Of a DNA stretch of 64,000 bases, positions 12,042-59,980 are shown piece by piece. The notes beneath the pieces are model-generated. The model worked only from the letters and a program-made list of their open reading frames with translations, had not been told where the DNA came from and ran no database searches. Each line of letters starts with the position of its first letter. Position 1 is the stretch's first letter. A program made the position numbers and the translations under genes. The DNA lies in IMG/VR virus record IMGVR_UViG_3300045988_136451; one strand, written 5' to 3'. This stretch comes from a virus.

Positions 12042-12057
12042 TCGATTAAATAATCGA
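12042..12057. repeat. AT-rich 16-bp palindrome TCGATTAAATAATCGA (site 1)
   Basis: Perfect 7-2-7 palindrome in a GC-rich intergenic region, 5 bp upstream of a TTGACA -35 box. Confidence 0.8.
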
Positions 12058-12062
12058 GGCCC

Positions 12063-12090
12063 TTGACAGGCCGTGCCCCCCCCCATAACG
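12063..12090 (+). promoter_or_regulatory. Orphan poly-C promoter-like element (TTGACA, 7 nt, C9 tract 12076..12084)
   Basis: Same TTGAC(A/T)-N7-C9 architecture as the four array promoters at 50.5-52.1 kb. No plus-strand ORF follows, and the shared terminator lies about 55 nt downstream. Confidence 0.45.
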
Positions 12091-12139
12091 GTTCCTTCGG
12101 GCGGCCAGATCAACATAGTCAGGCTCCCGACACCGGCGT

Positions 12140-12170
12140 AAAAAAAAGAACCCCTCTCGCGAGGGGTTCT
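12140..12170 (-). terminator. Rho-independent terminator downstream of the major capsid gene
   Basis: Hairpin GAACCCCTCTCGCGAGGGGTTC followed on the minus strand by T8. A 33-nt identical copy lies downstream of the endolysin gene at 52715..52746. Confidence 0.7.
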
Positions 12171-12183
12171 TCTCTTGCTGCGG

Positions 12184-13137
12184 TTAAGCTACATTCAAGT
12201 CCATGCGGACGACACCGTAGGAGTTGGCGATGATCTCGTTGATGAGTTCGCTGTACACCCAGCCGATGGTGAAGTTCTCGGCCTTGGGGTTGTCCACGCC
12301 GTCGAGCTGCTTCAGAATCGGCATCCAGCCAAGATACTCCGGCTCCGGAACGAGGTAAATCTTGTTCATCGGGCAGATGATCGAGGTCATGATGGAGAAG
12401 CGGCCCATCTTGGTGATCGGCTTGCCGTCCATCACGTCGTCGAGGAACTTAACGCCCGTGGTGTCGAGCTTCCACTTGTACAGGTCGTTCGCCGTCGCCG
12501 GGTTCATGATGACGCGGTTGGACTGCAAGCGGTTCTGGATGGCGATCTTCTCGGCATCGTAGAACGCGCCGGGGTTGATCTCGCCGGTGACCGTGGTCAC
12601 ATGCGAGGTGAGGCCCGCCCAGTCCGGGTTTTCGGAGGTGATCTTGGACACGGCAGCGTCGAGCGAGGAGAACAGGTAGCCGTCCTCCTGCTCCATGATG
12701 CGCTGCTCGGCCTCGCCCTTGGCGTAGTCCACCATGTTGATGGCGAGCTTGTAGATGTCCTCCTCGGCGATCTGGGGGAACGCCGCGATGCGGATGACCT
12801 CGTAGCGTACGCGGTTGCCCTCGTACTGCGCGATCTTCACTTCGTTGTCGTGCGGTTGCAGCTTGTAGGCCGCGCCGAACTCGGTGGTGATGTCGTAGAA
12901 CAGGCCAGCGCCCTGCGGCAGCGGGTCTTCCATCAGAACGGAGCGCACGATGCCCTCGTAGCGGAGACGCATGATGATCGGGCCTACCACGCCCTGCGCG
13001 ACCTTGGTGGACGCGAGACGCATGTCGTGGCGGTTGTCCGTCAGAATCTTGTTGAGCGCCGCCTGACGCTTCGCGGGGGACGACGGTTTCGCACCCATCT
13101 CCGCGACGATCTCGGCGGAAGTCTTAGGCATTGCCAT
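12184..13137 (-). CDS. Major capsid protein (317 aa)
   Basis: Follows the scaffold-like and decoration-like genes and is followed by a strong terminator. Its size and position match a major capsid protein. Family not identified. Confidence 0.5.
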   Translation of the reverse strand: MAMPKTSAEIVAEMGAKPSSPAKRQAALNKILTDNRHDMRLASTKVAQGVVGPIIMRLRYEGIVRSVLMEDPLPQGAGLFYDITTEFGAAYKLQPHDNEVKIAQYEGNRVRYEVIRIAAFPQIAEEDIYKLAINMVDYAKGEAEQRIMEQEDGYLFSSLDAAVSKITSENPDWAGLTSHVTTVTGEINPGAFYDAEKIAIQNRLQSNRVIMNPATANDLYKWKLDTTGVKFLDDVMDGKPITKMGRFSIMTSIICPMNKIYLVPEPEYLGWMPILKQLDGVDNPKAENFTIGWVYSELINEIIANSYGVVRMDLNVA

Positions 13138-13161
13138 TTCTCTGCACCTTCCCTTCTTATC

Positions 13162-13671
13162 TTAGCGGGCGAACGTGACGATGAGGGTGGAACCCTCCAT
13201 GCCGAGCAGTTCGCAGATGGTGTTCTCGGTCTTGGTCTGCGGCGCGGTTTCGAGCGTCAGCAGGCCCTTGGCGTTGGACTTCAGGTAGACGTTCTTGCCA
13301 GCCTTCAGGTTGGCGATCTCCGCCGTCCAACCGGCGCCCGTGTCGTACGCCGGGGGATAGATGGCGAACTGGCTGTCTTCGCCGCCGACCCACACGCCCA
13401 TCAGGTTGAGGCCGTTTTCGCGCACCTCGTCGATGTTCATGCCGGGAGCGCAGAAGCTGTCTGCGAGGCCGTAAGGGGCCTTCGTGCCGTCGCACAGGGT
13501 CACAACGCCGTTGCCGAGATAGGACATGACGCAGCCGGGGAGGATGTCTCCGGATGCGGCGGTGAACGTCGGGTCGAGCGTCATGGACTGGTTGGTGGCT
13601 TGGGTCTTCGCGTACAGCGGCTTGATGGTGCGGTGCTGCAAGGGGTTGTTGGCAGGAACCATGAGTGCCAT
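13162..13671 (-). CDS. Head decoration-like protein (about 169 aa)
   Basis: Start adjusted to MALMVPANNPLQHRTIKPLYAKTQAT, with an AAAGGAG ribosome-binding site. Its N-terminus is paralogous to the product of 19626..20537 (TLKPLFTKTQAT). Confidence 0.4.
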   Translation of the reverse strand: MALMVPANNPLQHRTIKPLYAKTQATNQSMTLDPTFTAASGDILPGCVMSYLGNGVVTLCDGTKAPYGLADSFCAPGMNIDEVRENGLNLMGVWVGGEDSQFAIYPPAYDTGAGWTAEIANLKAGKNVYLKSNAKGLLTLETAPQTKTENTICELLGMEGSTLIVTFAR

Positions 13672-13694
13672 AGTAACCACTCCTTTCTTTCGTC

Positions 13695-14642: not shown

Positions 14643-14822
14643 GTAACGCTCCTTTCGTGAAACTAGTGTCTCCTGAACGTGCACGCATGGTGCACGGCTC
14701 CATTTTGACACATACAGAAAATCGCGCAACATAGAAAGCGCCCCTCCGAAGAGGGGCGCTGCCGGTCTACCACTGGCCGTTCGGCTTATCAGGCTCGTTT
14801 CAACCCACGCCCTCGCGGGCGA

Positions 14823-15092
14823 CTAATCGTAGAAGTACAGTATGCTGCTGTCGTCGGTCACCATCGACGGGCTTACGCCGCCCCTATCGACGAACGGGTC
14901 GAGCACGGGCGTTGTGAACACCGCGTCGCCCTTCACGAAGTAATGCTCGCCGTCGGCGTAGAACGTGTCGTCCCACCTCGTCGATTCGAGCGCGCGGACG
15001 AACGCGTTGTCCGCCGGGGTGCTCCTGTCCCAAGCCTCGCGCAGGAAGTTGTAAAGTTCGAGGTCTGTCATCGCAAGCCCCTTCCTACGCAC
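14823..15092 (-). CDS. Hypothetical protein (89 aa)
   Basis: Track ORF. Confidence 0.3.
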   Translation of the reverse strand: MRRKGLAMTDLELYNFLREAWDRSTPADNAFVRALESTRWDDTFYADGEHYFVKGDAVFTTPVLDPFVDRGGVSPSMVTDDSSILYFYD

Positions 15093-17931
15093 CCAATGCC
15101 GCCTTGGAGCCGGTGCGCCTGCCGACCTCCTCGGTGACGGCGCTCTTCGCGCCCTCCAACGTGTCCTCGTCGCCCTCGGCCATCTTCTCGCCGGACGCGC
15201 CGCCGCTCGTCATGTCGATCAGCTCCCAGTGGTACTTTCCGGGCGTGGAGTAGTCGTAATCGACCTCCATCTCGTACGGGTGCTCGAACTTGGCCCACAC
15301 GCCGTCCTGCTCCTCCCAGCCGTCGTCGGCGGTCTTCGCGGAGGCGGTGCGGCCCAGAGCGTCGTCGATGGCGGCCTGCGCGCTCGGGAAGTACCCTTGG
15401 CGCGGATAGCCCTTCACTCCCACGTCTTCGGTGACCCAGTACCAGTTGTAGGTTCCGTCGGCCTCGACTTCGGCGTTCACGATCTTGCCGTCGCCCGTGA
15501 AGCGCCACGGGCTTCCGAGAGCGCCGCCGCCCATGGTCTCGAACTTCGTCCAGCCGTCGGGCGCGGGCGTTGAGCGCCCGGTGTCGTGCCCGTCGCTCGC
15601 CGCCGTCTTGGCGGGGAGGCGCTGGGCGTTCTGCGCCAGCCACTCGTCCGCGAGCCTCGCGCAGTACTCCATGGCAGGCTCGATCATGCAGAAGCCGTCC
15701 TCCGGGTTGTCGTACTTCGCCAGCAGCTGGTCGTACGGCATGCTTTCGACCTCGGCGTAGGGCAGGCCGTCGATTGAGACGGTCTTGACGCGGGCGATCT
15801 CCAAGCTCGGCTCGTACGCGCCGTCCAGCGTTCCGTCGTAATAGGCGTAGCAGCCCTTCGCGTCGTAGTAGAGGTTTCCGGGAAGGTTCGTCCAGCCAGC
15901 CCACGACACGTTGACGGTGGAGCCATCGCTTCCGACGTACTTGTACCAGTAGTCTTCGCCCGCATGCTCCCATCCGCCCATCTGCGCGGTCTTTCCGCCG
16001 ACGAGATGCAATCCTTCCGCCCTGTCGGAAAGCCAGTCGTGGGCATCGTACGTGGTGTCGAAGTACTCGACATCTTCGCCATCGGAGGCTTGCCAGCAAT
16101 CGTACTGGTCGTTCCACTCTATGGCATATCCGTCATAAGTGTACTTGGTGGTGCCGTCAGGCCCCGCGCCCGTCTGCCATGAATCGAGCGACGGAAGCGA
16201 TGCGGTCTTCGATGCCGTGGTGACGCGCACGGTCTTGGGAGGCGCTGCGGAAACGACCTCGTTGTACGTCATCTTCTCGAACCGCTCCGCCTGACGCAGG
16301 GCGTAGTCCATGTTCGGCATCATGCCGAACTCGTGCACCTGACCCTTGTCGGAGATGACGGTGAGCTGCGGCTTGGAGCCGATCTGCTGCTGGACGACAC
16401 CGATGGTCGCCCTCTTGTCCTTCGTCTGCCCTTCGTAGAAGGCGTAGAACGGCAGCTCCTCGTCATGGTAGCTAATCTCCGGGGCGAGGCCGCCGCTGGC
16501 CGTCTTGCGCGGCGCACGCCTCGCCTCCCTCATTATCCTCTCGATCTCGCTTTTCGCATCTTCCTCATAATCGTCCTCGCCCTCTGCGAGAACGTATCCA
16601 TAGGCATCCTCGACGAACCAAACCCCGTCTTCCGACAGAACCGCGCGGGTTCCGTTGTCGCCGGTCGCCTTCCACCCGTTATATCCGTTGTCCTTCCACA
16701 CGACATCAGCCGTCTTGCCGCGCGACGCGCGTTTTGCAGCGCCGACGAAAGACCGGACGGAAACGTCGATGTCCTTCCCGTCGTTGTATTCCTTCTCGAA
16801 GGAAACCGTGTATTCGTCCCAAACGGAGAAGTCGTCGAAAGGCGCTTCCCTGCCGGAGACCATCTGGGATATTTTGCGCGTCATCTCGCCGTCCAGCTCA
16901 ACGTCGCTCCGCATGTGCACGTTGATGCCGTCAAACACCTGCCCGTAATTGAACTCGGACGACACCTTCCTCGATGCCGTGCGGCGCGCGGAGCGCTTGC
17001 GCCCTGCGGAGCGGGCCGCCCTGTTCTCCGCGCTCTTCTTCTCCATGTCGTCGTCCTTTCCATCGGTCTCCCGCTCGACCTCTCCGATGCCTTCGTTGAA
17101 CTCGTCCTCCTCGGACGGGTCGAGGTCGATGAGCAGCTTGTGAAGCTCTCCGGCGTGCTCCTTCTCCTCGTCGCGTATGTCCTCCAAGCCCTTGCGCACG
17201 GGGTCGCCCTCGGGCAGGAGGTCGATGTAGGCGCTGTACATCAGGATAGCGTCGTTCTCCGCCTTCATGTTGTCGCGGATGGCGCGCTTCTTCAGCTCCT
17301 CCTCCGAAAGCTCCTCGGGGTCAACCGGCATCTGCTGCGCGGTCTTCCCCTCCTTCCATTCGCCCTCGATGCCGTCGGCTTCGAGCTTCGCCACGACGGC
17401 ATCGTACAGCTCGCCGCCGAGCGCGTCTTGGACGATCTGCCAGTAGCGGTTGTCGTGCTCCTCCATGGCGGTGCCGTGGTCGTATCCGGCCAAGTCCCCC
17501 GCCACGAGCCAGTCAACGACGGCCTGAACCGTGCGGTCGTCCGGCATGGACGCGCTCTTGGGCATCCTGCCGCTCCCTGACACCTCTTCTGTGTCCCTGC
17601 CGTACTCCGGCAGCGTTTTGAACTCGACGCGCCCCACATCGGCTCCTGTTCCCTCGGAGGCGGCGTTGCGCCCCATGCACAGGGGCAGCTTCCCGCTGCC
17701 CTCGATCAATTTGCAGAACTCGCGCGCCTCGTCCTCGTCCGCGCACACCTTGAACCGCGCCGCCTCGTTCGGCTTGTCCTTCTCGAAGACACCGGCCCAC
17801 ACGGTGTCGCCGGTCTTGTCTATCGAGTAGTTGAACGCCTCGCCGCACGATGTCAGGACGCGGGGCATCTCCTCTTTCCATCGCAGGGCCGTCTTCGCGC
17901 CCCGCTCGATTATTTTATCGGGCTTGCCCAT
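15085..17931 (-). CDS. Large virion-associated hypothetical protein (948 aa)
   Basis: Track ORF with acidic stretches and Trp/Tyr-rich C-terminal repeats. A TCGATTATTTTATCG variant of the palindrome overlaps codons 3-7, encoding DKIIE. Confidence 0.4.
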   Translation of the reverse strand: MGKPDKIIERGAKTALRWKEEMPRVLTSCGEAFNYSIDKTGDTVWAGVFEKDKPNEAARFKVCADEDEAREFCKLIEGSGKLPLCMGRNAASEGTGADVGRVEFKTLPEYGRDTEEVSGSGRMPKSASMPDDRTVQAVVDWLVAGDLAGYDHGTAMEEHDNRYWQIVQDALGGELYDAVVAKLEADGIEGEWKEGKTAQQMPVDPEELSEEELKKRAIRDNMKAENDAILMYSAYIDLLPEGDPVRKGLEDIRDEEKEHAGELHKLLIDLDPSEEDEFNEGIGEVERETDGKDDDMEKKSAENRAARSAGRKRSARRTASRKVSSEFNYGQVFDGINVHMRSDVELDGEMTRKISQMVSGREAPFDDFSVWDEYTVSFEKEYNDGKDIDVSVRSFVGAAKRASRGKTADVVWKDNGYNGWKATGDNGTRAVLSEDGVWFVEDAYGYVLAEGEDDYEEDAKSEIERIMREARRAPRKTASGGLAPEISYHDEELPFYAFYEGQTKDKRATIGVVQQQIGSKPQLTVISDKGQVHEFGMMPNMDYALRQAERFEKMTYNEVVSAAPPKTVRVTTASKTASLPSLDSWQTGAGPDGTTKYTYDGYAIEWNDQYDCWQASDGEDVEYFDTTYDAHDWLSDRAEGLHLVGGKTAQMGGWEHAGEDYWYKYVGSDGSTVNVSWAGWTNLPGNLYYDAKGCYAYYDGTLDGAYEPSLEIARVKTVSIDGLPYAEVESMPYDQLLAKYDNPEDGFCMIEPAMEYCARLADEWLAQNAQRLPAKTAASDGHDTGRSTPAPDGWTKFETMGGGALGSPWRFTGDGKIVNAEVEADGTYNWYWVTEDVGVKGYPRQGYFPSAQAAIDDALGRTASAKTADDGWEEQDGVWAKFEHPYEMEVDYDYSTPGKYHWELIDMTSGGASGEKMAEGDEDTLEGAKSAVTEEVGRRTGSKAALGA

Positions 17932-17989: not shown

Positions 17990-19615
17990 CTACCGGTTCC
18001 ACGCCGGGTCGTACGCGAACGGAACCTCGTACCACGGTTTGCCGTCGATCTCGTCGATGAACGTGCTCACTTGGTTCTTGAACTCGTATCCGTCGATGAT
18101 CGCGGTCGTCTCCGGGGTCACGCGCAGGTACAGATCGCTGTTCCAATGGCTGATGTCGCTGTCGGGAACGCCGCTGCGCTCGATCTCCTCGAACAGGCTT
18201 GCGGTCTTCTTGGTCATGGATGCGGCCTTCCTCTTGGTTTTCCTCGCTGCCGCCATCTTACCACAAGTCTTAACTTTTGTCTTAACTTTTTCTCCGACTT
18301 TTTCCCTTACGTTCTTCTCCGCCAAAGCGACCAGCATGCGCGCGTGGATGTCGTTGCCGAGCGCGGTGCGGGAGGCGACGCGGAACGCGAAGCCGTTGTC
18401 GATGGTGTAGCCGTCGTTGATAACGATGTCGCGCCCGAAGCCCTCGTAGTCGAAGTACATCTCCTTCTCGTCGTCGCTGATGCCGTCGAAGCCAAACTCA
18501 TCGACGATGCGGTACCCCAAGTCGCGCTCGTCGTACACGTCGCTCCAATAGTCAACGTCGTCGATGTGCTCGGCGACGTATTCAAGGCTTTCGTAGTCGA
18601 GCAGCGCGTCGAGCAGATCGTCGTCGAGGTCTGCGTCCTCTATGGCCTCCACCCACTCGTTCACGCTGTATATGTCGTCGTACTCGCCGACGCTGCTGCC
18701 AAGCCCGTCGGTGTCGGAGATCATGACCTCCTCGTAGAACTCGCCGTCGGGGCCGGTCTGCGCGCGCTCGATGGCCTCCTCGATCTCGCTCTCGGAGGCT
18801 GGCAGCTTCAACCAGTCGCCGTTGGTGGGGTTGGACACCGCGCCGATGAATATCTCGCAGTCGCCGCCGAACGCCACCTTGCGCGCGGCCCATGCCCTGT
18901 AGCGCGCCTCCTTCGTCGCGAGGCGCGGCTTGCGGGACGCGTGCTTCGGCATCTTCTCGACCTCGGCCTTGTACTCCGCATAGGCCTCCTTGTCGGTCAG
19001 CTTCGCGCAGGCGACCATGCCCACGGCGCAGCCCATGCCCGCGAGGTGGTGCAGCACCTCGTCGTTGACCTTCCTCGCCATGCGGCGCTCCGCCATGCGG
19101 GACGCAACCCATTCCGCCTTGGCGATCTCCCCTGCGGGCACGCCGTCGGGGTCTCCGTCCATGAGGTCGTCAGCCGCGTCGGTAAGCTCGTCGATGTCCT
19201 GCGCGACCCTGAACGCGGCGCTCTCCTTCTCGTGCGCCTTCAGGTGCTCTTCCAAAGCGTCGTCGGCATCGTTCTTGGCATCCTCGATGCTGTCGGAATG
19301 CCCGCTGTCCACGGTGCGGTCGTCGGTGTCCAGCACGTCCCAGCGGTAGCGCTTCTCGCCGCCGTCGTCCCACTTGACGGTCGCCTGATAGCCGCCGTCG
19401 TGCTTGCGCCACGTGGTGTCCTTCTCGTCCGGGTTCCCCTCGTTGTCTGCCTTCCATTCAGCGGCCATCTTGCGGCCTCCTTCCATGCGCTTCAGGCGCT
19501 TCAGCTCGTCTCGCTGGTGGTCTGTCTCGTCGTAGTCGTAAGGCAGCGCGAAGTCCGTCACGCAGTCGCCGTCGCCCTCGCGAGCCTTGCGGCTCATACC
19601 CTTAACAAGCTCCAT
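17990..19615 (-). CDS. Hypothetical protein (about 541 aa), possibly two fused genes
   Basis: Start adjusted to MELVKGMSRKA, with an AAGGAGA ribosome-binding site. An in-frame AT-rich element at 18243..18300 precedes an internal start MAAARKTKRK. Confidence 0.35.
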   Translation of the reverse strand: MELVKGMSRKAREGDGDCVTDFALPYDYDETDHQRDELKRLKRMEGGRKMAAEWKADNEGNPDEKDTTWRKHDGGYQATVKWDDGGEKRYRWDVLDTDDRTVDSGHSDSIEDAKNDADDALEEHLKAHEKESAAFRVAQDIDELTDAADDLMDGDPDGVPAGEIAKAEWVASRMAERRMARKVNDEVLHHLAGMGCAVGMVACAKLTDKEAYAEYKAEVEKMPKHASRKPRLATKEARYRAWAARKVAFGGDCEIFIGAVSNPTNGDWLKLPASESEIEEAIERAQTGPDGEFYEEVMISDTDGLGSSVGEYDDIYSVNEWVEAIEDADLDDDLLDALLDYESLEYVAEHIDDVDYWSDVYDERDLGYRIVDEFGFDGISDDEKEMYFDYEGFGRDIVINDGYTIDNGFAFRVASRTALGNDIHARMLVALAEKNVREKVGEKVKTKVKTCGKMAAARKTKRKAASMTKKTASLFEEIERSGVPDSDISHWNSDLYLRVTPETTAIIDGYEFKNQVSTFIDEIDGKPWYEVPFAYDPAWNR

Positions 19616-19625: not shown

Positions 19626-20537
19626 TTACTCGCCGAAGACGCAGGCGGTAAAATCGAACGTGTATTCCGTGCCGTCCGTCTTGCTCTCGGCATCCTCGGC
19701 GCTCGCGTACAGCGTCGCCGTGAACTCCTTCACATCCTTCTGAATGGCGGCGACGAGGTTGATGGCTCCCGGCCCGTCGCCCGTCTGGCCGAACACAAGC
19801 GTCTTCTCGCCGCTGCCGAGCGTCTGGCGGACGAACGCGGAGCCGTCAGCCGCCTTCATCTCGAACGCGGCGTAGTAGCCCGTTCTGTCCTCCTCTGCGG
19901 CGAAGAACTCCGTCCAGTCGGGAACGTGGTTGACGGTTCCACCGAAGACGACGTTCGTGCCTTCGACTCTCGCGGTGAGGCCGCTCGTCAGCTCGCCTAG
20001 GTTCTTACCGGCGAAGTTCGTTCCGGCGAAGTCCGTCTTCCCTATCGTCAGCGCCGCTGGCTGCGGCGGCTCCGCGACGAGGGCTTCCGGCGCTTCTGAA
20101 ACGGTTATCTTCGCCTGACCGACCGACATCAGCATGCACACCGGGTTCCCGTCGCCGACCGTCAAGCGACCGTTGGCATCCGATTCGAGCAGCACGCGGC
20201 CTCCCGACTTCAACGTCGCCTCCGCCGCCTCCCAGTCAGCATCCTTGTCGATGACGGAGCGCGACACGTCCGCCATCGCCCCGCCTCCGAAGACGAGAAC
20301 GCCAGCGCTGGGAACCTCCCAGACATTGTGCGTCCTGTACGTCGAGAACAGCCCCAAGGGGCGCTCCGCCCCGGTTGACGGCCTCACCCCGTCAGGCCCC
20401 ATGCAGGCGACCATGCCCGGCATGATGTCGTGCCTCGAAGGGTCAACGGGCCAATCTTGGAACGTCGCCTGCGTCTTCGTGAACAATGGTTTCAGGGTTC
20501 GATGCTCCTGCGTTGCGAAATTTGACACTATAGCCAT
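19626..20537 (-). CDS. Head decoration-like paralog with C-terminal extension (303 aa)
   Basis: Its N-terminus MAIVSNFATQEHRTLKPLFTKTQATFQ is paralogous to the product of 13162..13671. Confidence 0.4.
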   Translation of the reverse strand: MAIVSNFATQEHRTLKPLFTKTQATFQDWPVDPSRHDIMPGMVACMGPDGVRPSTGAERPLGLFSTYRTHNVWEVPSAGVLVFGGGAMADVSRSVIDKDADWEAAEATLKSGGRVLLESDANGRLTVGDGNPVCMLMSVGQAKITVSEAPEALVAEPPQPAALTIGKTDFAGTNFAGKNLGELTSGLTARVEGTNVVFGGTVNHVPDWTEFFAAEEDRTGYYAAFEMKAADGSAFVRQTLGSGEKTLVFGQTGDGPGAINLVAAIQKDVKEFTATLYASAEDAESKTDGTEYTFDFTACVFGE

Positions 20538-23500
20538 CTGCTTTCCTTTCCGATAACTCCGCCGCGCATCAATTCGTCAAGCGATGCGGAGTAAGAGGCG
20601 ATCTTACCTCCGCTCGCAAGATCGTAGTCTATGCCCTCTGCGTACCCGGCATCGGCGAGCGCCGCGAGCACGGTGCCCTGATCGTCCGGAACGTCGAACA
20701 GGCGGGCCGCGATGCGGGCATCGTCGGTGTCCTCCGCGTACTCCTCCTCGGCATCTTCGGTCACCTCCGCGTCAGGCTCCTCCGCATCGTCCAAGTCCTT
20801 GCGCAGCTCCTTGTTCTCCTGCGCCTCCTCCGTGTCGATGTCGCCGAAGCCCTCGGCGTACTCGACGTACTCGCACACGTCGCAGTAGATGCCGTCGAAG
20901 TCGGGGCTTCCGCATATCGGGCACACGCGGTCGGAGTTCTGCATGTCCACCTCTTCGGGGATGCGCAGCTTGTTCACCATGTTGTCGGCCAGCTTGTAGT
21001 GACCGGCGATCTCTTGGAGGGCATCGGCGTAGAACTCCTCGTCGGCATCGGCGGCCTCCTCGACGGCGCTCCACACCTCTGCGGCAAGCTCGTCGTAGCT
21101 GTCGAAGGACAGGCCGAGGCTGTCGTACTCCTCGATGAAGTCGTTGGCGAAGCCGCTTGCGTCGTCTGCGGAGCCTTCCTTGCCCTCGCCGAACGGCTCG
21201 ATGCCGAACCTCCTGCACGCGGCGTTCACCTTGTCGATGACGGCCTGCCTGTCATCGGACGGTATCTCGACCTTGTTCCCGCGATAGCCCTTGCCGAGCG
21301 CGGCCTTCGCCGCAGCGGCATGGTCTTTGTCCGAGATGTCCAGCTTCCAATCGCTCGGATTGTCGGTCGGAGTGTACGCATAGTCCGACTTGCTCTTCTC
21401 CGCCGCCGTCACCCGAAGCAGCGTCCGCGCCTCGTCGTATACTTCATCGTTCATGTCGGTGTGCCTCCATTGCATCGTCCCGAACATATGGTCGGCAAGC
21501 GTCCCGTCTGCTCCGCTGCCCACGTAGCTCTCCACCACGTCGTTCACTTTCTTGTCGAAGATGCAGTCGTAGTTCTCCGTGTTCTCGAAGTCAGACCACC
21601 TCGCATAGCCGTACAGCTCGCCGCCGTACATCTGCCTGTTGATGCCGTCGAGGTACCAGTTGCACCCGCCAACGCCGTAGCCCCAATGGTCGGAGCCGCG
21701 AACAACGCCGTCAGGGAAGTACCAGTACTCGGAGCCTGATTCGCTCGTGTAGTCGGGAGCGCCCTGCGGCCTGTCCTCCACCTCCGCGAAGTCCGCCTCG
21801 GTCTCTATGTAGAAGTTGTCGGGGCCGAACTCCCTTTCCTTCGCGGCGACCTTGGCGGTCTTCGCCTCGGCCTCCAACGCCTGCACGGTGGCCGTCGGGT
21901 CTGCCGGGTCGTACACCCAGCTCTCCTCGAAGAACGCTATGCCGTTGCATATCTCGAACGCGAGAACGCCGTCGAACTCGCGCCCCTTCTGCTTGATGTG
22001 GTTGCAGAACTGGGCGGGCTGCTCTGCCACGTTCCCGCACACCGAGCACGTCGTGGTCTCGCAATTATGAACGGCATACCCCTCGGCAATATAACTATGA
22101 TCTTCCTCAACTTCAAAGTTATACACCATCCCCGTGTACGGAAGAACCCTTATGCGGTCTATGCGCCTCCAAGTGCCTTGTTCGTCAACATAGCACATCA
22201 TCATTTTCTTCTGTTCTTCGGAGCGATCTCCATAAGAGACGTAACGTGTGTGTTTGGCAATATCGGATATTCTCTCGGAAGACCTAGCGATTGGTTTGGA
22301 CATCTTGATGCCAAGTTGAGTGCATATTGAAAATATCTGATATGCAAGGTCTTTTGAAACGGTGGAATATGCGACCCTGCGATCATCAATGTAATGTCCG
22401 TCTCCATTAAGATACGCTTCGACAAGATCGCCAAGACACTCATCATCCCAGCGCATTGCTTCGTCGCTTATTCTTTTCCCATGGGAATACTTCCCACCAT
22501 GCTCTAACATCATATTTGCAAGTTCCGGTGAATTGCACCTTATCGTAGCAGCTCCACGCTTGATATACGGCCCAACCGCCTTATATCCGAGTTCAGAGCA
22601 AAGCGCCATGACTTCATCGTGATAATCAGTCTCGCTATCGCAAAACGTCCACTCGACAAACGCTGGTGCGCCAACACCAATGTTCAGCTTTTTGTCATAT
22701 CCGAAGTTTCCCTCTGCGAGATAGTATCCAAGGAGCCTTGCGAACGCGCGATTCCCGCCACGCGATGTGCGAACGGGCTTCGGGTCGAGAACGTAATCTC
22801 CAACCTCCAAGTCACTCGCAATGACCCATCCTTCAAAATCGGGCTGGTATCCATGGCCGTCAACGCCGTTCTTCGCGGCCTCGCGCACATGCGCCGCAAG
22901 GCTTCTATGGCTCTTGAACGAGCGCCCGCAAATGCAAGAATGCTCTGCATTGTCGCCATCATGAGCTATCCTGCTTTCACGTATGGTTCGCATCGCGTCG
23001 TTCTTCATTCGACGCACCCAGACGGGATGCTCGTCGGTAAGAACCATCGGACGTTTGCTTCCATAAGATCGCACCTCATACACGATTCCGGAATGCAAGC
23101 TCGCCATCGTGTCGGCAACCCTTCGCACGTTCCCAAGATGCGTTATAACCTCATCGCCGACCGCAACGTCTTCGATGTTTTTGACGGTGCCGTTTGACAT
23201 AGTTATATGCGTTCCGGGAACAAAGCAGTTGAGGCCCATGGAAACGGTGTCGATGTCGCCGCTGCGGATGAGCGCGCACAGCCTCGGGAACGTAACCTCG
23301 TCCATCTCCATCAGAATCTCTATCCAACGGTCTTCCGGGTCTTCGTCGTGGTACACCGCGTCGATGATGTAGCCGCGCGCCCTGTCGAGGTTCGTGTTCG
23401 AGTGGTTCACGTACACCGGCTTGCCGACGAACGTGCGGTACGCGGTCTTCAGCTCCTCGTGCGGCAGCATGTCGAAGTTCAGGTTCGGAACGTCTGCGGT

Positions 23501-38113: not shown

Positions 38114-38436
38114 GCGAACACCTCCTCGTCCGCCATGCCGCCGCTGGCGACGTGAACGCCCATGATTCCCTTCACGTTGTCGGAGACTATGGCGTTGATC
38201 TCATCGACGGCCTGCGGGTCGTCGGCGTGCGAGGATGCCATCGACCGGAACTTCTCCCTAGCCGCCTCCTCGCGGTTGGCAGCGTCGGCGGACTTGACTT
38301 CGAGCGCCCGAATCGTCTCCGCGAGCGACGCTATCCTGCCCTCGCACTCCGAGCACTCGTCGAACGCCTCGCGCCATTCCTGCATGACCTTGGTGATCGC
38401 GCTCCGCGAAGCGCCGTCAAGACCGGGCATCGTCAC
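38110..38436 (-). CDS. Hypothetical protein (108 aa)
   Basis: Track ORF. Confidence 0.3.
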   Translation of the reverse strand: MTMPGLDGASRSAITKVMQEWREAFDECSECEGRIASLAETIRALEVKSADAANREEAAREKFRSMASSHADDPQAVDEINAIVSDNVKGIMGVHVASGGMADEEVFA

Positions 38437-39097: not shown

Positions 39098-39113
39098 TCG
39101 ATTATTTAATCGA
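39098..39113. repeat. AT-rich palindrome TCGATTATTTAATCGA (site 2)
   Basis: Lies between an upstream TACAAT and the ribosome-binding site of gene 38433..39074. Confidence 0.8.
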
Positions 39114-39120
39114 CATTGTA

Positions 39121-39942
39121 TCACAGCCACTTGCCCTCGGTTGAGAATCTTTGCCAGTCGCCGGAGGCGAGCACGTTGCCGAGCGTCGGGCACCAGTCGC
39201 CGCGCCTGTTGTCCATGAGCCACTTCCGGAAGTCGGGGTTGCGAAGCGCCCGCAGAACGTCCTCCCTCCAACGCCCAACGCCGTCGCCCGCAGCCTCTGC
39301 CGCCTCGGCCACGATCTCCCGCTCGCGCTCCAAGAAGCTCTCGTTCTGGTACCGCAGCGGAACGTCCGGGTACGCCTCCCTGAAGTCCCGATGCGCAGCG
39401 TCGATTAAATAATCGAGTTCTGCGGTGCCCTGCCCTTGGGTGTCTGCGGAGATTTTCCGCGCGCGCGCGCGTTCATTCGTTCCTCCCTCATGTCCATCTC
39501 TGTCAGGAGTGGTTTGGTTGTTACAGGTGGGGCTTTGGTTGATGTTACTTTGGTTGATATTACTTTGTGTCGTGTTATCCGACGACGGGTTATCCGATGA
39601 CGGGTTTTCCGTCATCGGGGCTGAACTGGTGTTTTCCGTGTACGGCCTGATAAAGTATCTTACGCCGCTGAACGTGCCGTCATTCTCGCTTTTAACGGTT
39701 TCTCGTCGGACGTATCCAAGCTCTTCGAGTTCCTTGACGGCGCTGCGCACGGCATCGCGCCCGTCGGCCATGCACTTCGATATGCCGTTGATCGAATAGT
39801 CCCACTCTTCGGAGCAGGAGAGCATGAAGGCGAGAACCCCCATCGCTTTGGCGCTCAACCTCTTGTCTCGTAGAAAGTCGATCTTGACGACCATGAAGCC
39901 GTCTGCGCCGGTGTCCACCATGCATTGCTTGTCTGCTCTCAT
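39121..39942 (-). CDS. Replication initiator or organiser-like protein with winged-helix N-terminus (about 274 aa)
   Basis: Start uncertain (MRADKQCMVDTGADGFMVVKIDF...). Carries KAMGVLAFML and SKCMADGRDAVRSAVKELEELGYVRRE motifs typical of DnaD or replisome-organiser wHTH domains. Has a Ser/Asn/Gln-rich linker. Confidence 0.35.
   Translation of the reverse strand: MRADKQCMVDTGADGFMVVKIDFLRDKRLSAKAMGVLAFMLSCSEEWDYSINGISKCMADGRDAVRSAVKELEELGYVRRETVKSENDGTFSGVRYFIRPYTENTSSAPMTENPSSDNPSSDNTTQSNINQSNINQSPTCNNQTTPDRDGHEGGTNERARARKISADTQGQGTAELDYLIDAAHRDFREAYPDVPLRYQNESFLEREREIVAEAAEAAGDGVGRWREDVLRALRNPDFRKWLMDNRRGDWCPTLGNVLASGDWQRFSTEGKWL
39401..39416. repeat. AT-rich palindrome TCGATTAAATAATCGA (site 3)
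   Basis: Perfect copy inside the 39121..39942 coding region. Confidence 0.8.
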
Positions 39943-40092
39943 TGCACACCCCATAACAAAAAAAAAGAACCCGTTGCATGTCTTCGCGTAGGGGTGCACG
40001 ATAGAATACAATGGGTCTAACCGAAATTGTATCCTATCACGCACCCCTACGCAAGACCCCATTGTATACCCAAGCGCCCAGAGATTACAAGA

Positions 40093-41927: not shown

Positions 41928-42001
41928 TGCTCCTTCATGCGCATGCGGGTTCTGCTTGAGATTTTAGCAGCAAAAGAAAAGCGGCGCACCCCAGTAGGCC
42001 C

Positions 42002-42017
42002 TCGATTAAATAATCGA
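42002..42017. repeat. AT-rich palindrome TCGATTAAATAATCGA (site 4)
   Basis: Intergenic, upstream of gene 40803..41927. Confidence 0.8.
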
Positions 42018-42049
42018 GCCTGCGGGGCGCGCCGCCTCGTTCCTCGGAA

Positions 42050-45014: not shown

Positions 45015-46238
45015 CTATTTCTTCCACGGCGGCACCGCCTCCTCCTCCGCCTTGAAGTTGTACACCGGTCGCATGACCTGCACAACGTCCACCGTGTCGG
45101 CCACGCTCTCGATTATTTTATCGGCATCCTTGTACGCGCCGGGTGCCTCGTCGAGCGTCGAGGAGCCTATGCACGAAGACCAAACGCCGTCCATCTGCTC
45201 GCGGTAGTCCTTGACGCGGAGGCTCCGCTTCGCCTTCGCGCGGGACATCTTGCGCCCGGCCCCGTGCGGGGCAGACCAGTTGTAGTCCTCGTTGCCCTTC
45301 CCGATGCCGATGACGCAGCCCTTCGCCATGTTGAGCGGGATGATGACCTTCTGGCCCTCGTACGCCGCTATAGCGCCCTTGCGGATGATGCGGTTCGCCG
45401 TATCGACGTAGTTGTGCGTCGAGGAGACCATATCGTCCCAGCCGCCCCATCCCATGCCGGAAAATATCTCGCGCGCCATCGTCTCGCGGTTGGCCGACGC
45501 GTACATCTGGCAGAAGTCGCAGTCGTGAAGGTACTCTTCGAGCAGCCTGCCTTCGGCCCATGCCAGCTCCTTGCCGACCGAATGCTCGCGCTGTATGCCG
45601 TTCATCGTTTGCAGCACGTAGCCGATAAGCTCCTGCTTGCCGTCGGCCTTCAGGCGCTCTATGAAGCCCTCCTTCAGGTACCCGGTCGATTGGATGCCGA
45701 CGCGGGAAAGCTCCTCGTGCGCCGCCTTCTGGTACACGCCGCACACCTGCGAGCCGAGGTTGCGCGAGCCGGAATGGATGACCAGCCACAGGTTGCCGTC
45801 CATGTCCTCGTCGATCTCGATGAAGTGGTTGCCGCCTCCGAGCGTCCCCACCGACCTCTTGATTCGGTCGAGGTCGTGCAGGCGGTCGATGCAGGCGAGG
45901 TCGTCCCATCCGAACCAGAAGTCCTGCTGCTCGTTTTCGCGCCAGCTCATGCCGGACGGTATGCGCTCGCGCACCACGTCGTCGAGCGTCTGGAAGTCCA
46001 CGCGCCTCTTGCCCACGAGGTAGGCGTTCACGCCGCACGATATGTCAACGCCGACGACGTTGGGTATGACGGCATCGCCGAACGTTGACGTGAGGCCCAC
46101 CACGCATCCGATGCCAGCGTGGGCATCGGGCATGACGCGTATGCGCTGCCCCTTGAACGGTCGGAGCGCCGCAAGCTCCTCGACCTGCCTGCGCGCCTCG
46201 TCCTCGATCTCCTCCGCGTAGATTTTAACGTCTTCCAT
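45015..46238 (-). CDS. rtcB: RtcB family 3'-phosphate RNA ligase (407 aa)
   Basis: Carries the RtcB signature motifs MPDAHAGIG, GGGNHFIEIDED, IHSGSRNLG and NWSAPHGAGR. Confidence 0.75.
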   Translation of the reverse strand: MEDVKIYAEEIEDEARRQVEELAALRPFKGQRIRVMPDAHAGIGCVVGLTSTFGDAVIPNVVGVDISCGVNAYLVGKRRVDFQTLDDVVRERIPSGMSWRENEQQDFWFGWDDLACIDRLHDLDRIKRSVGTLGGGNHFIEIDEDMDGNLWLVIHSGSRNLGSQVCGVYQKAAHEELSRVGIQSTGYLKEGFIERLKADGKQELIGYVLQTMNGIQREHSVGKELAWAEGRLLEEYLHDCDFCQMYASANRETMAREIFSGMGWGGWDDMVSSTHNYVDTANRIIRKGAIAAYEGQKVIIPLNMAKGCVIGIGKGNEDYNWSAPHGAGRKMSRAKAKRSLRVKDYREQMDGVWSSCIGSSTLDEAPGAYKDADKIIESVADTVDVVQVMRPVYNFKAEEEAVPPWKK

Positions 46239-54177: not shown

Positions 54178-54181
54178 CGCC

Positions 54182-55494: not shown

Positions 55495-56001
55495 CTACTT
55501 CCTGCCATTCTCCTTGTCGGCGGCCTTCTCCGCAAGCCGCTTCTCCGCCTCGGCGCGGCGCGCTTCGTATGCCGCAGCCATCTCGTCGCGGAAGAGGGAC
55601 AGCACATCCACGACGCTCAAATTCTCGGGCAGCATGCAGCCGTCAATCGCATCGCGGCACCACCTGTCGAACGGCTCGACCGCATCGACGCGCCCGCCGT
55701 GATCGAACTCCGTCATGGTCGCCGGTCTGCCGAAGTTCACGGCCCGGCGCGCCGTCTCGATGCCCAAGGCGCGCAGCTTGTCGGACAGGATGTCGGGCCG
55801 CTCCGCGCGGCCTCCCTCCATGGCCGCCGTCAAGCGGTCGGACAGACGGGCGTTCTCCGCCGTCAGCGCGTCGATGGTGCGGTACGCCCGCATGATCTCC
55901 GACACCACCGCCTCCCCGCTCATCGGCGCTGCCGCCTCGTGCGCCCGCGTCTTCTTGATGCTGCCGCCCAGCGTCGGCACGCTCTTGTGCTCCACAGCCA
56001 T
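55495..56001 (-). CDS. Hypothetical protein (168 aa)
   Basis: ATG at 56001, preceded by a GAAGGAG ribosome-binding site and a TCGATTATTTTATCGA palindrome variant. Confidence 0.35.
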   Translation of the reverse strand: MAVEHKSVPTLGGSIKKTRAHEAAAPMSGEAVVSEIMRAYRTIDALTAENARLSDRLTAAMEGGRAERPDILSDKLRALGIETARRAVNFGRPATMTEFDHGGRVDAVEPFDRWCRDAIDGCMLPENLSVVDVLSLFRDEMAAAYEARRAEAEKRLAEKAADKENGRK

Positions 56002-56015: not shown

Positions 56016-56031
56016 TCGATTATTTTATCGA
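56016..56031. repeat. AT-rich palindrome variant TCGATTATTTTATCGA (site 8)
   Basis: Sits immediately upstream of the ribosome-binding site of gene 55495..56001. Confidence 0.7.
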
Positions 56032-56392: not shown

Positions 56393-56405
56393 GGCCCTCT
56401 CCTCC

Positions 56406-56618: not shown

Positions 56619-56720
56619 GGTGCTCCTCCTAAACGAAACGGGCGGTGCCTTTTGACATCGCCCATTCTACAGGATGTAAAACAAGAAGTAAAGAGAAAAG
56701 TTAAGAAAAGAAATTAAGGC

Positions 56721-56954: not shown

Positions 56955-57015
56955 CGTTCCATCTCCCTTTGTCGTTGCTTGCCTAAAATCGGCCTTTCAA
57001 AAGGTCAATAGAAAT

Positions 57016-57603: not shown

Positions 57604-58432
57604 GCCCATGCCCTGAACCTTGCCCTTTCCTCGCGCCGATACGCCAGCAGCTCCCTGTGCTGCCAGCATTCCTGATACTCGACCCGCCTCCCGTAGGAGC
57701 GCAGAAGCCGCTCGTGCTCCTTCAGGTCGTCCGGGCAGATGTGTCGCCGCTGCGGCCCTCCGGAATCATGACCTTGCAATGGCCCTCGTACGCCATTTCC
57801 CCCTCCTTACGCCGACAGCAGCACGGCCATGACGAACCCGCCGAGCAGGAACGCGACGGCGCACGGCACGACGAACGGCTCGACCTCCCGCTGCCACGCC
57901 TCGCGCCACTCCTGCTCGGTCATGCGCCCCCTGCCGTCCCCGAACTTCCTTGGAACGCGCCTCTGGCGGCTTCTGACGGCCCTGTGGGCCGAGTTGTCGG
58001 TATACATGGTGTCTTCCTTCCTACGCCCGTCTATAGGGCGTTACGCGAAGCCCTGCGGCTTCATTCTACACGATGTAAGATAAGAAGTAAAGAGAATAAA
58101 TTAAGAAAAGAAATTAAGATGGGCGCGGGCATGCTGCGTGTCCGAGGAGGGAAAGGCCAATGGATGCCCGTAGGCTGGGTTCGCCCGCGCCCGCACCGAT
58201 TGTCTCACGTCCGGGCTGCGGGCGAAAGCACCGTTTCACCGCTCGGACAAATCGAGGCGGGGAAGAATGTCGGCTGTCAGCTGGAACCCCTTCATGCATC
58301 CGAACCTGTCGGCTCCGAGCCGGTACGAGCCGAACGCGCACCCGGCGCACCCATCGTCGCCCATTTGCGGACGCATTCGCCGACGCTCGCGCATCCGCGC
58401 GCCATCCTGCACGCGTCCTCCTGTCGTCGTTC

Positions 58433-58474
58433 AAAAAAAACGGGCGGCGGCAACCATCCATCGAACCGCCGCCC
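58433..58474 (-). terminator. Rho-independent terminator with embedded GGTTCGATGG
   Basis: Hairpin GGGCGGCGG...CCGCCGCCC followed by T8 on the minus strand. It ends the long non-coding minus transcript that includes tRNA-Arg. Confidence 0.55.
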
Positions 58475-59066
58475 TTGGGAGCCGCATTGAGCGCGCGCTG
58501 GCTCCCTTCCACTTCCGGCAAAGGCTTCTAAGGTCAAGCAGCCCTACTCCCGTTCGGGAACCCAGCCGGTCGCGGCATCCGCGCTCATGATCGCCTCCGC
58601 CGCGTGCTTTGCGCCCAGCCGCACCTCGATTCAGTGGCGTAGGACTGTGCCTGTCCACCATGCACGAATAGTGCCGCCCGCCCCTATGCCGGGTCTTTCG
58701 CATAGGGTTCGATGGGCGCTCCGCCCCTCCGAACAGAGCGCGCATCGAACCTCATGCCGAAGGGAAGAGCGCGGGACGGCGGAGGAATCGAACCGCCTGA
58801 TCGCCGACCACCTCAATCAAGGCGAACCCGCCCGACGACGCTTCCCGCCCTCAACGTATCGCCCTGCCGTCGCAAGGGGTATCCAGTGGGCATCCAACGC
58901 CGCATGCGAGCCGTCCCGCTCCCCGCAGGACGCGTTTTCGGGCTTAGGTGACTCACCCTACTTGCATCCCGCTGACAGTGCCGTTCCGGCTATTCACAGC
59001 CTTGCAGTGAGTGGTCGGCCTGTATGCCGCATCTCAACCGACTTGACCGCAAGGCGACTGCTCGTC

Positions 59067-59143
59067 TGGCACCCCCGGTAGGAATCGAACCTACGACCTG
59101 ATTCTTAGGAGGAATCTGCCCTTCCGCTGGGCTACGGGGGTGC
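59067..59143 (-). tRNA. tRNA-Arg (anticodon CCU)
   Basis: Acceptor stem GCACCCC/GGGGTGC. Anticodon stem GATTC/GAATC with loop CTCCTAA. T-arm GTAGG-TTCGATT-CCTAC. CCA is encoded. The D-arm region is 1-2 nt longer than canonical. Confidence 0.6.
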
Positions 59144-59462
59144 GTTTTCAACGTTTCGTCCGGGAGGGTGTACGGCCCTCCCGGCTCCGGGCATCCCCGT
59201 CGCGCTTGACCGCTCTCCTCCCTCCACGGGAGGTGCGGACATGGGCGCTCCGAACGCCGTTGGGCGGGCATTGCCCCGCCGCCGCAACGGTACGCGTACC
59301 TCGCTCCGGCGCGCTCGTCCTTCGTGCGCGCCGCCGAGCGTCTTATCTCGCCGGTGCGTCGCCCATGTTACCACACTTCTTAACTCTTGTCTTAACCTTT
59401 TCTTTCTTTTTTTTATCTTACAAAAGAAAGGCCCGCGATTGCGGGCCGTGGCTTCAGTCCGG

Positions 59463-59545
59463 GAGGGCGGGAATCGAACCCGCACATGCTGTACCTGTTA
59501 TGGCGCGCCCAGTGCTCTGCCGTTGAGCTACCTCCCGATGCATGG
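59463..59545 (-). ncRNA. tRNA-like element with an atypical anticodon region (possible pseudo-tRNA)
   Basis: Has an acceptor half CGGGAGG/CCTCCCG, a canonical D-arm GCTCAACGGCAGAGC and a T-arm GCGGG-TTCGATT-CCCGC. The central 29 nt contain the palindrome GGCGCGCC and cannot be folded into an anticodon arm. Confidence 0.35.
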
Positions 59546-59964
59546 GAAGCGCCGGAGGAAGGTGCAATGCGCACCGTTCGGGCGCTTCCCAAGTTCGCTG
59601 CGGGTGCCCTCGCCGTCCGCAGTCAGGATGCCCACCGATGATGACTTTCGGCATCCTCCCTCGCCCCTCTGCGCGGCCCGTTCGCAGCGGCCCGTGCTCG
59701 GAACCCGCGTTCGGGAAACTACCGGATAACGGCGTCCTCCCACCGCGTACCCCGCTCGCCTCCTCTGCGAAAGTCGGCCACGGGGGTGCCTTCGTGGATG
59801 CGCGCGAGCGTCACGTCCGATTCGTCCATAGCCCTAGCCATCGAAGGCCTAGCGCCGCATCCCAAGGCATCAGCTTCGTCGCTGACGGAAAGTCGAGGGC
59901 GGGGAGCTGCGGGCCGACGATGCGACGGCGCGCCCCTCATCCTTTCGGGCAGAACGGCGCGACC

Positions 59965-59980
59965 TCGATTAAATAATCGA
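59965..59980. repeat. AT-rich palindrome TCGATTAAATAATCGA (site 5)
   Basis: Perfect copy in the non-coding tRNA region. Confidence 0.8.

Follow-up and report, generated by a model that had tools for sequence, protein, structure and literature searches.

A 64,000-nucleotide stretch of viral DNA (IMG/VR virus record IMGVR_UViG_3300045988_136451; hereafter the window) carries eight copies of a 16-bp AT-rich palindrome, TCGATTA-WW-TAATCGA. The palindrome family is real, conserved, and previously undescribed, and it belongs to the known class of dispersed phage regulatory repeats. The copies are kept at fixed positions by strong purifying selection, are enriched in non-coding DNA, and are associated with promoters. 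We propose, with about even confidence, that the palindromes are bound, as double-stranded DNA, by a single sequence-specific and probably dimeric protein that regulates phage transcription. That a protein binds them as DNA, and with which sign it regulates at each site, we infer from the sequence. With 98–99.5% identity, the window corresponds to the reverse complement of roughly 5.4–69.1 kb of Eggerthella phage LE2-3 (MW679026.1), whose host is E. lenta DSM 2243 and whose genome record is circular and 111,961 bp long. Almost all genes are therefore on the minus strand of the window, and the palindrome is to be read on this strand. A literature search found no paper that names LE2-3 or its 16-bp palindrome.

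The original prediction, made from the letters of the window alone, listed five perfect copies of TCGATTAWWTAATCGA, at 12042, 39098, 39401, 42002, and 59965, and three variant copies. All eight are present, and the variants, which span 17906–17921, 45109–45124, and 56016–56031, are the sole additional places found with up to three mismatches (<=3). The exact 16-mer does not occur in 100 dinucleotide-preserving shuffles, compared with five occurrences in the window, and the search with up to three mismatches returns 14 strand-matches, compared with 0.14 expected. On the plus strand, the 56016 variant reads TCGATTATTTTATCGA, and the 17906 and 45109 variants read TCGATTATTTTATCGG, with two mismatches to the 16-mer and one to the 15-mer form in which they were first described. 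The GC content of the window, given earlier as ~65%, was measured as 62.6%.

A motif scan of the whole LE2-3 genome, as the original prediction had proposed, finds 16 copies of the palindrome, on one strand and throughout the genome. The palindrome is the most over-represented AT-rich word of LE2-3, and 16 of the 17 gene-strand TAATCGA heptamers of the phage lie in palindrome copies. The gene-strand consensus is yCGATwAwwTAATCGA, followed by G in 14 of the 16 copies. The centre has the form TTATTT in six copies, TTAAAT in four, and TAAAAT in six. The first two forms are one perfect 7-2-7 palindrome in two orientations, so that the copies with perfect arms have the centre TT (six) or AA (four), and the TAAAAT form has T6 changed to A. 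The downstream half, TAATCGA, is invariant across the 16 copies. All 14 deviations from the perfect dyad are located in the upstream (left) half (two-sided p=1e-4) and comprise T to C at position 1, T to A at position 6, and one TGAATTA. The information content of the flanks is about zero, and their pairwise identity is 28–30%, compared with 27% for random sequence. Because the flanks share no sequence, the palindrome is not the end of a larger mobile repeat, an outcome that had been named as one that would count against an operator; it is a unit of 16–18 bp, and no target duplications were seen around the copies.

The palindrome is conserved in related phages. Near-identical relatives (IMG/VR and metagenome contigs, 97–100% identity) keep every site. 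Diverged contigs with GC contents of 52–64%, given below by L numbers, were found through homologues of the gene at 38433–39074 (47–53% identical), the capsid protein, and the endolysin. For each of the eight window sites, one or more diverged lineages have a copy at the orthologous position. Over 13 orthologous comparisons, the palindrome is 97% identical to the window copy, compared with 57% in the ungapped ±40-nucleotide (nt) flanks. Lack of conservation in related genomes had been named as a second outcome that would speak against the idea, and conservation was found instead.

The 12042 site is present in L223 (12396) as TCGATTATTTAATTGA, 35 nt from the same TAGACT box and separated from it by a spacer of diverged sequence, and the 17906 site is identical in sequence and position in L223 (5022). 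At 39098, the promoter, palindrome, and ribosome-binding site are all kept in L215, L216, and L220; the extended −10 promoter TGTGATACAAT is invariant in four lineages, and the palindrome subtype varies by lineage (TCGATAAAAT... in L216, CCGATTAAAT... in L220). The 39401 site is kept in the same three contigs and has the TAAAAT subtype in L220, which changes the encoded DYLIE to DKIIE. In the comparison of the window with LE2-3, the 16 bases of this site are unchanged inside a patch of roughly 65 nt that is about 50% diverged. At 42002, L215, L216, and L220 keep the palindrome, the base of the surrounding stem, the T-tract, and the −10 box, and the bases between the stem base and the palindrome vary. 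The 45109 site is kept in L216/L232, L220, and L230 and is absent from L215, the RtcB of which has ASSIVEG at this place. RtcB therefore does not require the DKIIE peptide, and selection acts on the nucleotides. The 56016 site is kept in L230 and L232 with the same subtype and in L231 as TCGATTATTTAATCGA, and the 59965 site is kept in L230 and reads TCGATTATTTAATCGG in L231.

Orthologous sites thus exchange TT and AA centres, TTAAAT and TAAAAT forms, and T and C at position 1, and the encoded peptide follows the nucleotides. The orientation of the centre is therefore immaterial, as it should be for a dyad bound by a symmetric dimer. The polarity of the deviations is not absolute, since the relatives show three exceptions: TAATTGA, TAATCGG, and one reversed TAAAAT copy. 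No analogous repeated word was found in ScottMcG (Cluster C, major capsid protein 38% identical), and the palindrome was not found near the capsid gene in contigs with major capsid proteins 47–49% identical or in low-GC contigs (75–88%). The symmetric variant TCAATAAAATAATTGA in L225 may be due to chance. In a scan of IMG/VR, several copies occur only in near-identical relatives, and the other matches are single chance occurrences in AT-rich contigs. A scan of a genome collection gave no Eggerthella record among the matches listed, and a metagenome search with RtcB found only relatives of 98–100% identity.

The placement of the copies is far from random. LE2-3 is 94% coding, yet 11 of its 16 copies touch non-coding DNA, compared with 7% expected (p=8e-10). 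Six copies end 10–30 nt 5′ of an annotated start codon (p=1e-6). Start-proximal copies, which number only six or seven of the 16, end 2–14 nt 5′ of the Shine-Dalgarno sequence and never contain it. Copies within genes are forced into the sole open frame, where they encode D-K-I-I-E or D-Y-L-I-E in AT-rich (rare) codons. As noticed originally, the 17906 and 45109 variants both encode D-K-I-I-E; the other two frames of the variant contain TAA.

Promoters of the phage are found in about 14 AT-rich islands and are of the host (sigma-A-like) type. One family has the form GAAAAAGTTAAGACA...TGTGGTAAGAT, and the second is composed of T-rich TCTTAAnTT repeats followed by TTTACT-17-TAGAAT. Relative to a mapped AT-rich promoter, six of the 16 palindrome copies fall between −20 and +350 nt (p=8e-5). 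The palindrome overlaps the promoter core at three sites (39098, LE2-3 97650, and LE2-3 109207), in a register that varies between them. At LE2-3 97650, the TAAAAT of the palindrome is the −10 box of a TTTACT-17-TAAAAT promoter located 5′ of the primase gene. At LE2-3 109207, the palindrome begins 8 nt after the TAGTCT box of TGTGATAGTCT. The 39098 copy begins 1 nt after the extended −10 promoter, roughly at operator position −6 to +10, and thus sits between the promoter and the ribosome-binding site of gene 38433–39074, where the original prediction had placed it. Such a varying register over promoter cores is typical of a repressor site rather than of a promoter element. Transcription from the 39098 promoter is expected to start inside the left arm of the palindrome, and the transcript would therefore not include the whole hairpin.

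Three other copies are located 34–37 nt 5′ of −10 boxes that lack a −35 box, which puts the centre of the palindrome near −55. The TAAAAT box noticed next to the 42002 copy is part of an extended −10 element, TGCTAAAAT (TGcTAAAAT, 41961–41969), 35 nt downstream of the palindrome. The 12042 copy is 34 nt 5′ of the −10-like TAGACT (12002–12007), and the LE2-3 75103 copy is 5′ of TGgTAGAAT, the hexamer of which is only 7 nt from the ATG, suggesting that the message is leaderless. For the two strong −10 boxes, the upstream spacing has a p of about 0.002. The TTGACA at the 12042 copy, taken earlier for an adjoining −35 box, lies on the strand opposite to the genes, where there is no gene for it to drive. 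Copies are also found 167–334 nt 3′ of a strong promoter, past the first short gene (LE2-3 1893 and 111607, and 17906 of the window, the last about 334 nt 3′ of the strong conserved promoter at 18255–18289). No conserved element was found upstream of the palindrome. In generic scans for promoters and terminators, the counts did not exceed those of shuffled sequences.

The DNA-site reading is based on the combination of these features. The palindrome is a dyad with an orientation-indifferent centre and an invariant stem without covariation, and it is under strong selection at fixed positions. It occupies promoter cores at varying register and keeps a spacing of about −55 at three −10 boxes, and the 39098 transcript, if it starts inside the left arm, cannot fold the hairpin. 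We hypothesize that a protein bound over the −10/+1 region of a sigma-A-like promoter would block initiation (39098; LE2-3 97650 and 109207). A protein bound to a site centred ~55 bp 5′ of a −35-less −10 box might help or hinder RNA polymerase (42002 and 12042; LE2-3 75103). Inside a transcription unit, an occupied site may act as a gate or roadblock on read-through, as proposed for stoperators (PMC9283540). Sites of this putative roadblock type often follow closely on a strong promoter and its initial small gene, or occupy the final gap upstream of a ribosome-binding site.

Table 1 Palindrome copies in the window and the promoter abutting one of them (sequences on the gene strand).
Feature	Coordinates	Strand	Form	Location
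Palindrome	12042..12057	-	perfect arms, centre TT, TCGATTATTTAATCGA then C	intergenic
Palindrome	17906..17921	-	variant, CCGATAAAATAATCGA then G	inside 948-aa gene 15085-17931
Palindrome	39098..39113	-	perfect arms, centre AA, TCGATTAAATAATCGA then G	23 nt 5′ of ATG of gene 38433-39074
Extended -10 promoter	39115..39125	-	TGTGATACAAT (TACAAT)	abuts 39098 copy; serves gene 38433-39074
Palindrome	39401..39416	-	perfect arms, centre TT	inside lambda-O-like replication initiator gene (about 39121-39951)
Palindrome	42002..42017	-	perfect arms, centre TT	intergenic
Palindrome	45109..45124	-	variant, CCGATAAAATAATCGA then G	inside rtcB (45015-46238)
Palindrome	56016..56031	-	variant, TCGATAAAATAATCGA then G	intergenic, 23 nt after upstream stop
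Palindrome	59965..59980	-	perfect arms, centre TT	intergenic, tRNA cluster, 68 nt 3′ of tRNA-Met (60049-60123)

The surroundings of the individual copies differ (Table 1). The 12042 copy is 126 nt past the stop of the major capsid gene (12184) and 82 nt before the next start (11959). The 17906 copy overlaps the first codons of the 948-residue gene, as originally noted, where it occupies codons 4–9 (P-D-K-I-I-E) just 3′ of a terminator-like hairpin and the ribosome-binding site. The 39401 copy is located in a variable linker of the initiator and encodes D-Y-L-I-D/E. The 42002 copy forms the apex of a long GC-rich hairpin (41981–42036), which is followed by TTTTCTTTT (41972–41980) and has a folding energy of −45.4 kcal/mol. 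The location of the 45109 copy inside rtcB was confirmed; it is 91 nt before the stop and 81 nt before the start of the next gene, and it encodes A-D-K-I-I-E. The 56016 copy is directly 5′ of a ribosome-binding site, as had been described, with 2 nt to AGGAG and 14 nt to the ATG of gene 55495–56001.

Several observations weigh against a DNA-bound regulator. A simple symmetric dimer offers no explanation for the confinement of the LE2-3 deviations to the upstream half. The variation is confined to the positions that would form the loop, the loop-closing pair, and the terminal pair of a hairpin, and two exceptions in the relatives (C14 to T and A16 to G) are compatible with G-U pairing; both patterns fit an RNA hairpin too. 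Ten of the 16 copies are not at recognisable promoters, and their role there is guesswork. The cognate binder was not found: Pfam and PHROGs scans, which covered roughly 100 of the 142 annotated genes, detected no sigma factor, RNA polymerase, or other regulator. The only clear helix-turn-helix protein of the phage is the O-like replication initiator, which was rejected as the binder because the window phage and LE2-3 have different DNA-binding domains in this protein but the same palindromes.

The main rival explanation, which we consider unlikely, is an RNA-level element, in which an mRNA hairpin or the invariant UAAUCGAG is recognised by a phage or host protein or nuclease. Such an element would control translation start, processing, or stability, or termination at the 42002 hairpin. 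Besides the pattern of variation described above, an RNA element accounts for the presence of eight of the 16 sites within ribosome-footprint distance of a start; four of these are 2–3 nt before AGGAG, and the 17906 copy is at codons 4–9. Each asymmetric LE2-3 copy has its invariant half on the transcribed strand, and the palindrome caps a longer GC hairpin at 42002 and LE2-3 111195. However, the hairpin of a lone palindrome is very weak (−2.5 to −3.4 kcal/mol) and lacks a U-tract. The TAAAAT subtype, which accounts for six of the 16 copies, breaks stem pair 6–11 without compensation, and covariation is nowhere seen. At 39098, the conserved promoter should initiate within the left arm. The sites 34–37 nt 5′ of −10 boxes and the site that forms a −10 box are hard to explain at the RNA level, and half of the sites have no start codon nearby. 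In an Rfam scan, tRNAs were the sole matches, and no family matches the palindrome. As an intrinsic terminator the palindrome was rejected on account of the weak hairpin and missing U-tract; only the 42002 copy is within a true terminator-like hairpin.

It is improbable that the palindromes are sites of DNA transactions, such as initiator binding at an origin, strand-specific nicking of the T5 or phiKMV type, recombination hot-spots, or parS-like condensation and partition. The genome-wide distribution on one strand agrees with such a role, as do the two copies 303 bp apart that flank the 3′ part of the O-like initiator gene and the HNH, GIY-YIG, and LAGLIDADG nucleases, RecA, and exonuclease encoded by the phage. 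Nevertheless, the DNA-binding domain of the initiator has been swapped (HTH_36 in the window, a different N-terminus in LE2-3) while all palindromes remained constant, which makes initiator or origin sites unlikely. The parS-like sites considered in the original prediction are not supported: the scans of roughly 100 proteins detected no ParB, and the copies are associated with promoters and gene starts, an enrichment that is not expected for origins or nicks. The breakpoints of the relatives do not coincide with the sites, except near 39401.

Still less probable is that the palindrome itself is a promoter used by an RNA polymerase that the phage encodes or modifies; it would then be a highly conserved directional element of roughly 17 bp that ends at the start G, similar to T7-type or T4 late promoters. 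Sixteen conserved copies, mostly just 5′ of ribosome-binding sites, would suit this role, and a start 7 nt downstream of the central TwAwwT would fall on the conserved purine that follows the palindrome (G in 14 of 16). The TAAAAT subtype makes a good −10 hexamer and serves as one at LE2-3 97650. However, no RNA polymerase or sigma-like protein was detected in the scanned proteins, and the 17906 copy lies past the start codon of the gene that it should serve, with the next start 2.8 kb away. Orthologous sites differ in the orientation of the centre (TT or AA), a flip not expected to be tolerated in a promoter. At 39098 and LE2-3 109207, a complete extended −10 promoter is already present 1–8 nt 5′ of the palindrome, and at four sites the transcript would start 2–3 nt from the Shine-Dalgarno sequence. 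As a sigma-70 or sigma-A promoter the palindrome was rejected, since the TTATTT and TTAAAT forms lack a proper hexamer yet replace TAAAAT at orthologous sites. A selfish or neutral repeat (the end of a miniature mobile element, or a homing-endonuclease target) or a compositional accident is largely refuted: the phage carries many homing endonucleases and inteins, and the palindrome sits insertion-like in hairpin loops at 42002 and LE2-3 111195, but the flanks are unrelated, the copies are fixed at orthologous positions despite diverged flanks, and the coding copies are maintained through rare codons.

The DNA-site reading can be compared with dispersed repeats of other phages. Cluster A stoperators are asymmetric 13-mers of temperate mycobacteriophages that bind a monomeric immunity repressor of the L5 gp71 type, and their inversion abolishes function (PMC9283540). 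The LE2-3 palindromes resemble Cluster A operators and stoperators in the presence of more than a dozen copies of a short site genome-wide, some at promoters and most in short intergenic gaps, in an apparent bias of site polarity relative to transcription, and in the GC-rich actinobacterial host. In contrast to them, the LE2-3 palindrome is a 7-2-7 dyad with a freely flipping centre rather than an asymmetric site, and the phage shows no lysogeny genes and, in the Pfam and PHROGs scans, no repressor. Relative to transcription, the LE2-3 family combines the upstream-half bias with both centre orientations and the three exceptions in relatives; genes are nearly all on one strand, so strand and orientation are inseparable.

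Cluster O mycobacteriophages carry more than 30 copies of a 17-bp dyad repeat, TGTTCGGNNNCCGAACA, with 7-bp arms and a TTT/AAA centre; its function and binder were unknown to the authors, who predicted binding of a dimeric protein (PMC4351075). The likeness to the LE2-3 palindrome, which is one of kind and not of homology, includes invariant 7-bp inverted arms, a short A/T centre in either orientation, copies in intergenic regions, at gene 5′ ends, and deep within genes, and a phage that is not obviously temperate. The Cluster O repeats differ in their GC-rich arms, 3-bp spacer, and copy number of >30, compared with the AT-rich arms, 2-bp spacer, and 16 copies of LE2-3. Furthermore, the Cluster O sites are mostly off promoters, whereas six of the 16 LE2-3 copies are in fixed relation to −10 boxes, and only the LE2-3 palindrome has a preferentially degenerate upstream half. 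The start-associated sequence (SAS) of Cluster K is asymmetric, 13 nt long, and includes the ribosome-binding site itself (GGGATAGGAGCCC); it immediately precedes the starts of 11–19 genes. ESAS, which are imperfect inverted repeats, were judged unlikely to act as hairpins, as compensation is lacking (PMC3203893). SAS and ESAS share with the LE2-3 palindrome their shortness, conservation, single orientation, and position upstream of start codons. Unlike SAS, the palindrome excludes the Shine-Dalgarno sequence, and more than half of its copies are not start-proximal.

The early-to-late regulators of lytic or lytic-phase phages, such as p4 of phi29 and Ogr of P2 or delta of P4, the latter two with sites near −55, repress and activate from dyad sites. 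The LE2-3 family is similar in that one dyad family is located over early promoters or ~55 bp upstream of −35-less promoters. It differs from these systems, in which the proteins are known and the few sites are all at promoters: most LE2-3 sites are off promoters, and activation is suggested only by spacing. The actinobacterial LexA/SOS box, with the consensus TCGAAC-N4-GTTCGA, was rejected as an identity of the palindrome, which shares the TCGA ends and the length and differs at the critical inner positions. The palindrome likewise lacks the features that define a Cluster K start-associated sequence, a terminator, a promoter, or a mobile repeat. The palindrome stands between the dyad repeats of Cluster O, which it resembles in form, and the operators and stoperators of Cluster A, which it resembles in distribution and promoter link.

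The LE2-3 phage does not have the appearance of a lysogenic system. Its genome includes a tail-sheath gene, and its capsid protein is 38% identical to those of Cluster C mycobacteriophages (Bxz1/ScottMcG type, about 155 kb). It is distantly related to these mycobacteriophages, and its relatives are lytic-type Cluster C-like myoviruses. PhiKL11, an E. lenta phage described in the literature, is a 44-kb siphovirus and is unrelated to LE2-3. Neither the scans of roughly 100 proteins nor the GenBank annotation revealed an integrase, ParA or ParB, or a Cro/CI-type repressor, in agreement with the earlier remark that no cognate repressor is visible in the window. An immunity repressor is therefore unsupported. 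From the original idea of genome-wide operators or stoperators we retain a selected element whose placement fits sites of a regulatory protein, and not the picture of a lysogenic phage governed by a single helix-turn-helix repressor.

Gene 38433–39074 had been labelled Lsr2-like, a label that we do not retain: its product has no Pfam match at E<=1 and no PDB sequence match. It belongs to a small family with an N-terminal domain containing invariant Cys7, Cys12, Cys52, and His55, followed by a basic disordered tail. A remote relative is a 1,956-residue protein that repeats residues 36–65 and matches Phage_zn_bind_6. The AlphaFold model is too poor to use, with a predicted local distance difference test (pLDDT) score of 48. 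The block of promoter, palindrome, and ribosome-binding site of this gene is the best conserved non-coding stretch seen, so that the gene may be autoregulated. The protein is a weak candidate for the binder, solely because its own promoter carries the palindrome. The other proposed candidate, 61939–62691, gave no informative match in the scans.

The promoters of the phage have further regularities. A strong host-type family, GAAAAAGTTAAGACAAnAGTnnAGnnnTGTGGTAAGAT, is preceded by an A-rich upstream block and has four copies in LE2-3 (1668, 9500, 50838, and 111428). In the window, it is present at 18255–18289 (minus strand) and near 59364–59374 (minus strand), the latter mapped from the LE2-3 9500 coordinates. 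One promoter of this family is located just 5′ of the capsid operon and is followed by a terminator-like hairpin and a palindrome copy. The T-rich TCTTAAnTT islands, followed by TTTACT or TTTACA, 17 nt, and a TAGAAT-type −10 box, are found at 56664–56718, 58063–58118, and 60700–60729 of the window (all on the minus strand) and at 11333, 12725, 22754, 90458, 92628, 97594, 98585, 108014, and 109124 of LE2-3. The A-rich block of the other family has the reverse-complement sequence of this T-rich block, which may serve, in either orientation, as an upstream element or as a binding site for a further factor.

Several neighbouring genes have been remodelled. The N-terminal part of the replication initiator is replaced between the two phages (window 39529–39947, LE2-3 29508–30334), and the C-terminal part is nearly identical. 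The window encodes a single initiator gene with HTH_36, and LE2-3 has two genes and a different winged-helix domain. A (CG)7 run is located just 5′ of the palindrome copy in the initiator gene. The terminase open reading frame (32540–35527, minus strand) contains a low-GC insertion of roughly 1 kb (32786–33791), so that its product has 995 residues compared with 661 in LE2-3. The insertion has a weak LAGLIDADG match; it is probably due to an intein or homing endonuclease whose presence varies among near-identical phages. A 1037-residue gene (20528–23641, minus strand; "tRNA synthetase" in LE2-3) contains intein/Hint domains and a GC dip to 0.55, and a PhoH-family gene (8430–10049, minus strand) contains a LAGLIDADG domain; both carry selfish elements in essential-looking genes. 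In L232, an IS605-type insertion with a Y1 transposase and OrfB/TnpB (15690–17206) separates the collagen-like tail fibre gene from rtcB. A small gene after the 940-residue gene of L223 (8194–8427) and L224 (1358–1591) has a precomputed Pfam match to AcrIC5, an anti-CRISPR of type I-C, and the open reading frame at the orthologous place in the window (about 14824–15072, minus strand) has no Pfam match at E<=0.01. In the tRNA cluster, ARAGORN predicts at 59457–59538 (minus strand) a tRNA that has an anticodon of four bases (cgcc) and to which it assigns no name. It is annotated as tRNA-Cys in LE2-3 and scores 48.8 bits in Rfam, below the neighbouring tRNAs.

Eggerthella lenta is a drug-metabolising, disease-linked gut bacterium for which very few phages have been characterised. 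As a bold and rather doubtful extension of the DNA-site reading, we speculate that the same protein might shut early sigma-A promoters from −10/+1 sites, activate −35-less structural promoters from sites at about −55, and act as a polar roadblock in operons. If so, the entire temporal programme of a strictly lytic phage would be governed by one dyad family, as stoperators without lysogeny, and the invariant downstream half-site would set the polarity of the roadblock. One site family at the promoters of replication, early, and structural genes provides a handle on the expression programme of the phage, and the tight operator and strong compact promoters are parts for the sparse genetic toolbox of E. 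lenta. The LE2-3 palindrome is a well-conserved, positionally stable addition to the unexplained dispersed dyad repeats of actinobacteriophages such as those of Cluster O, and comparisons of orthologous sites could make the function of these repeats testable.

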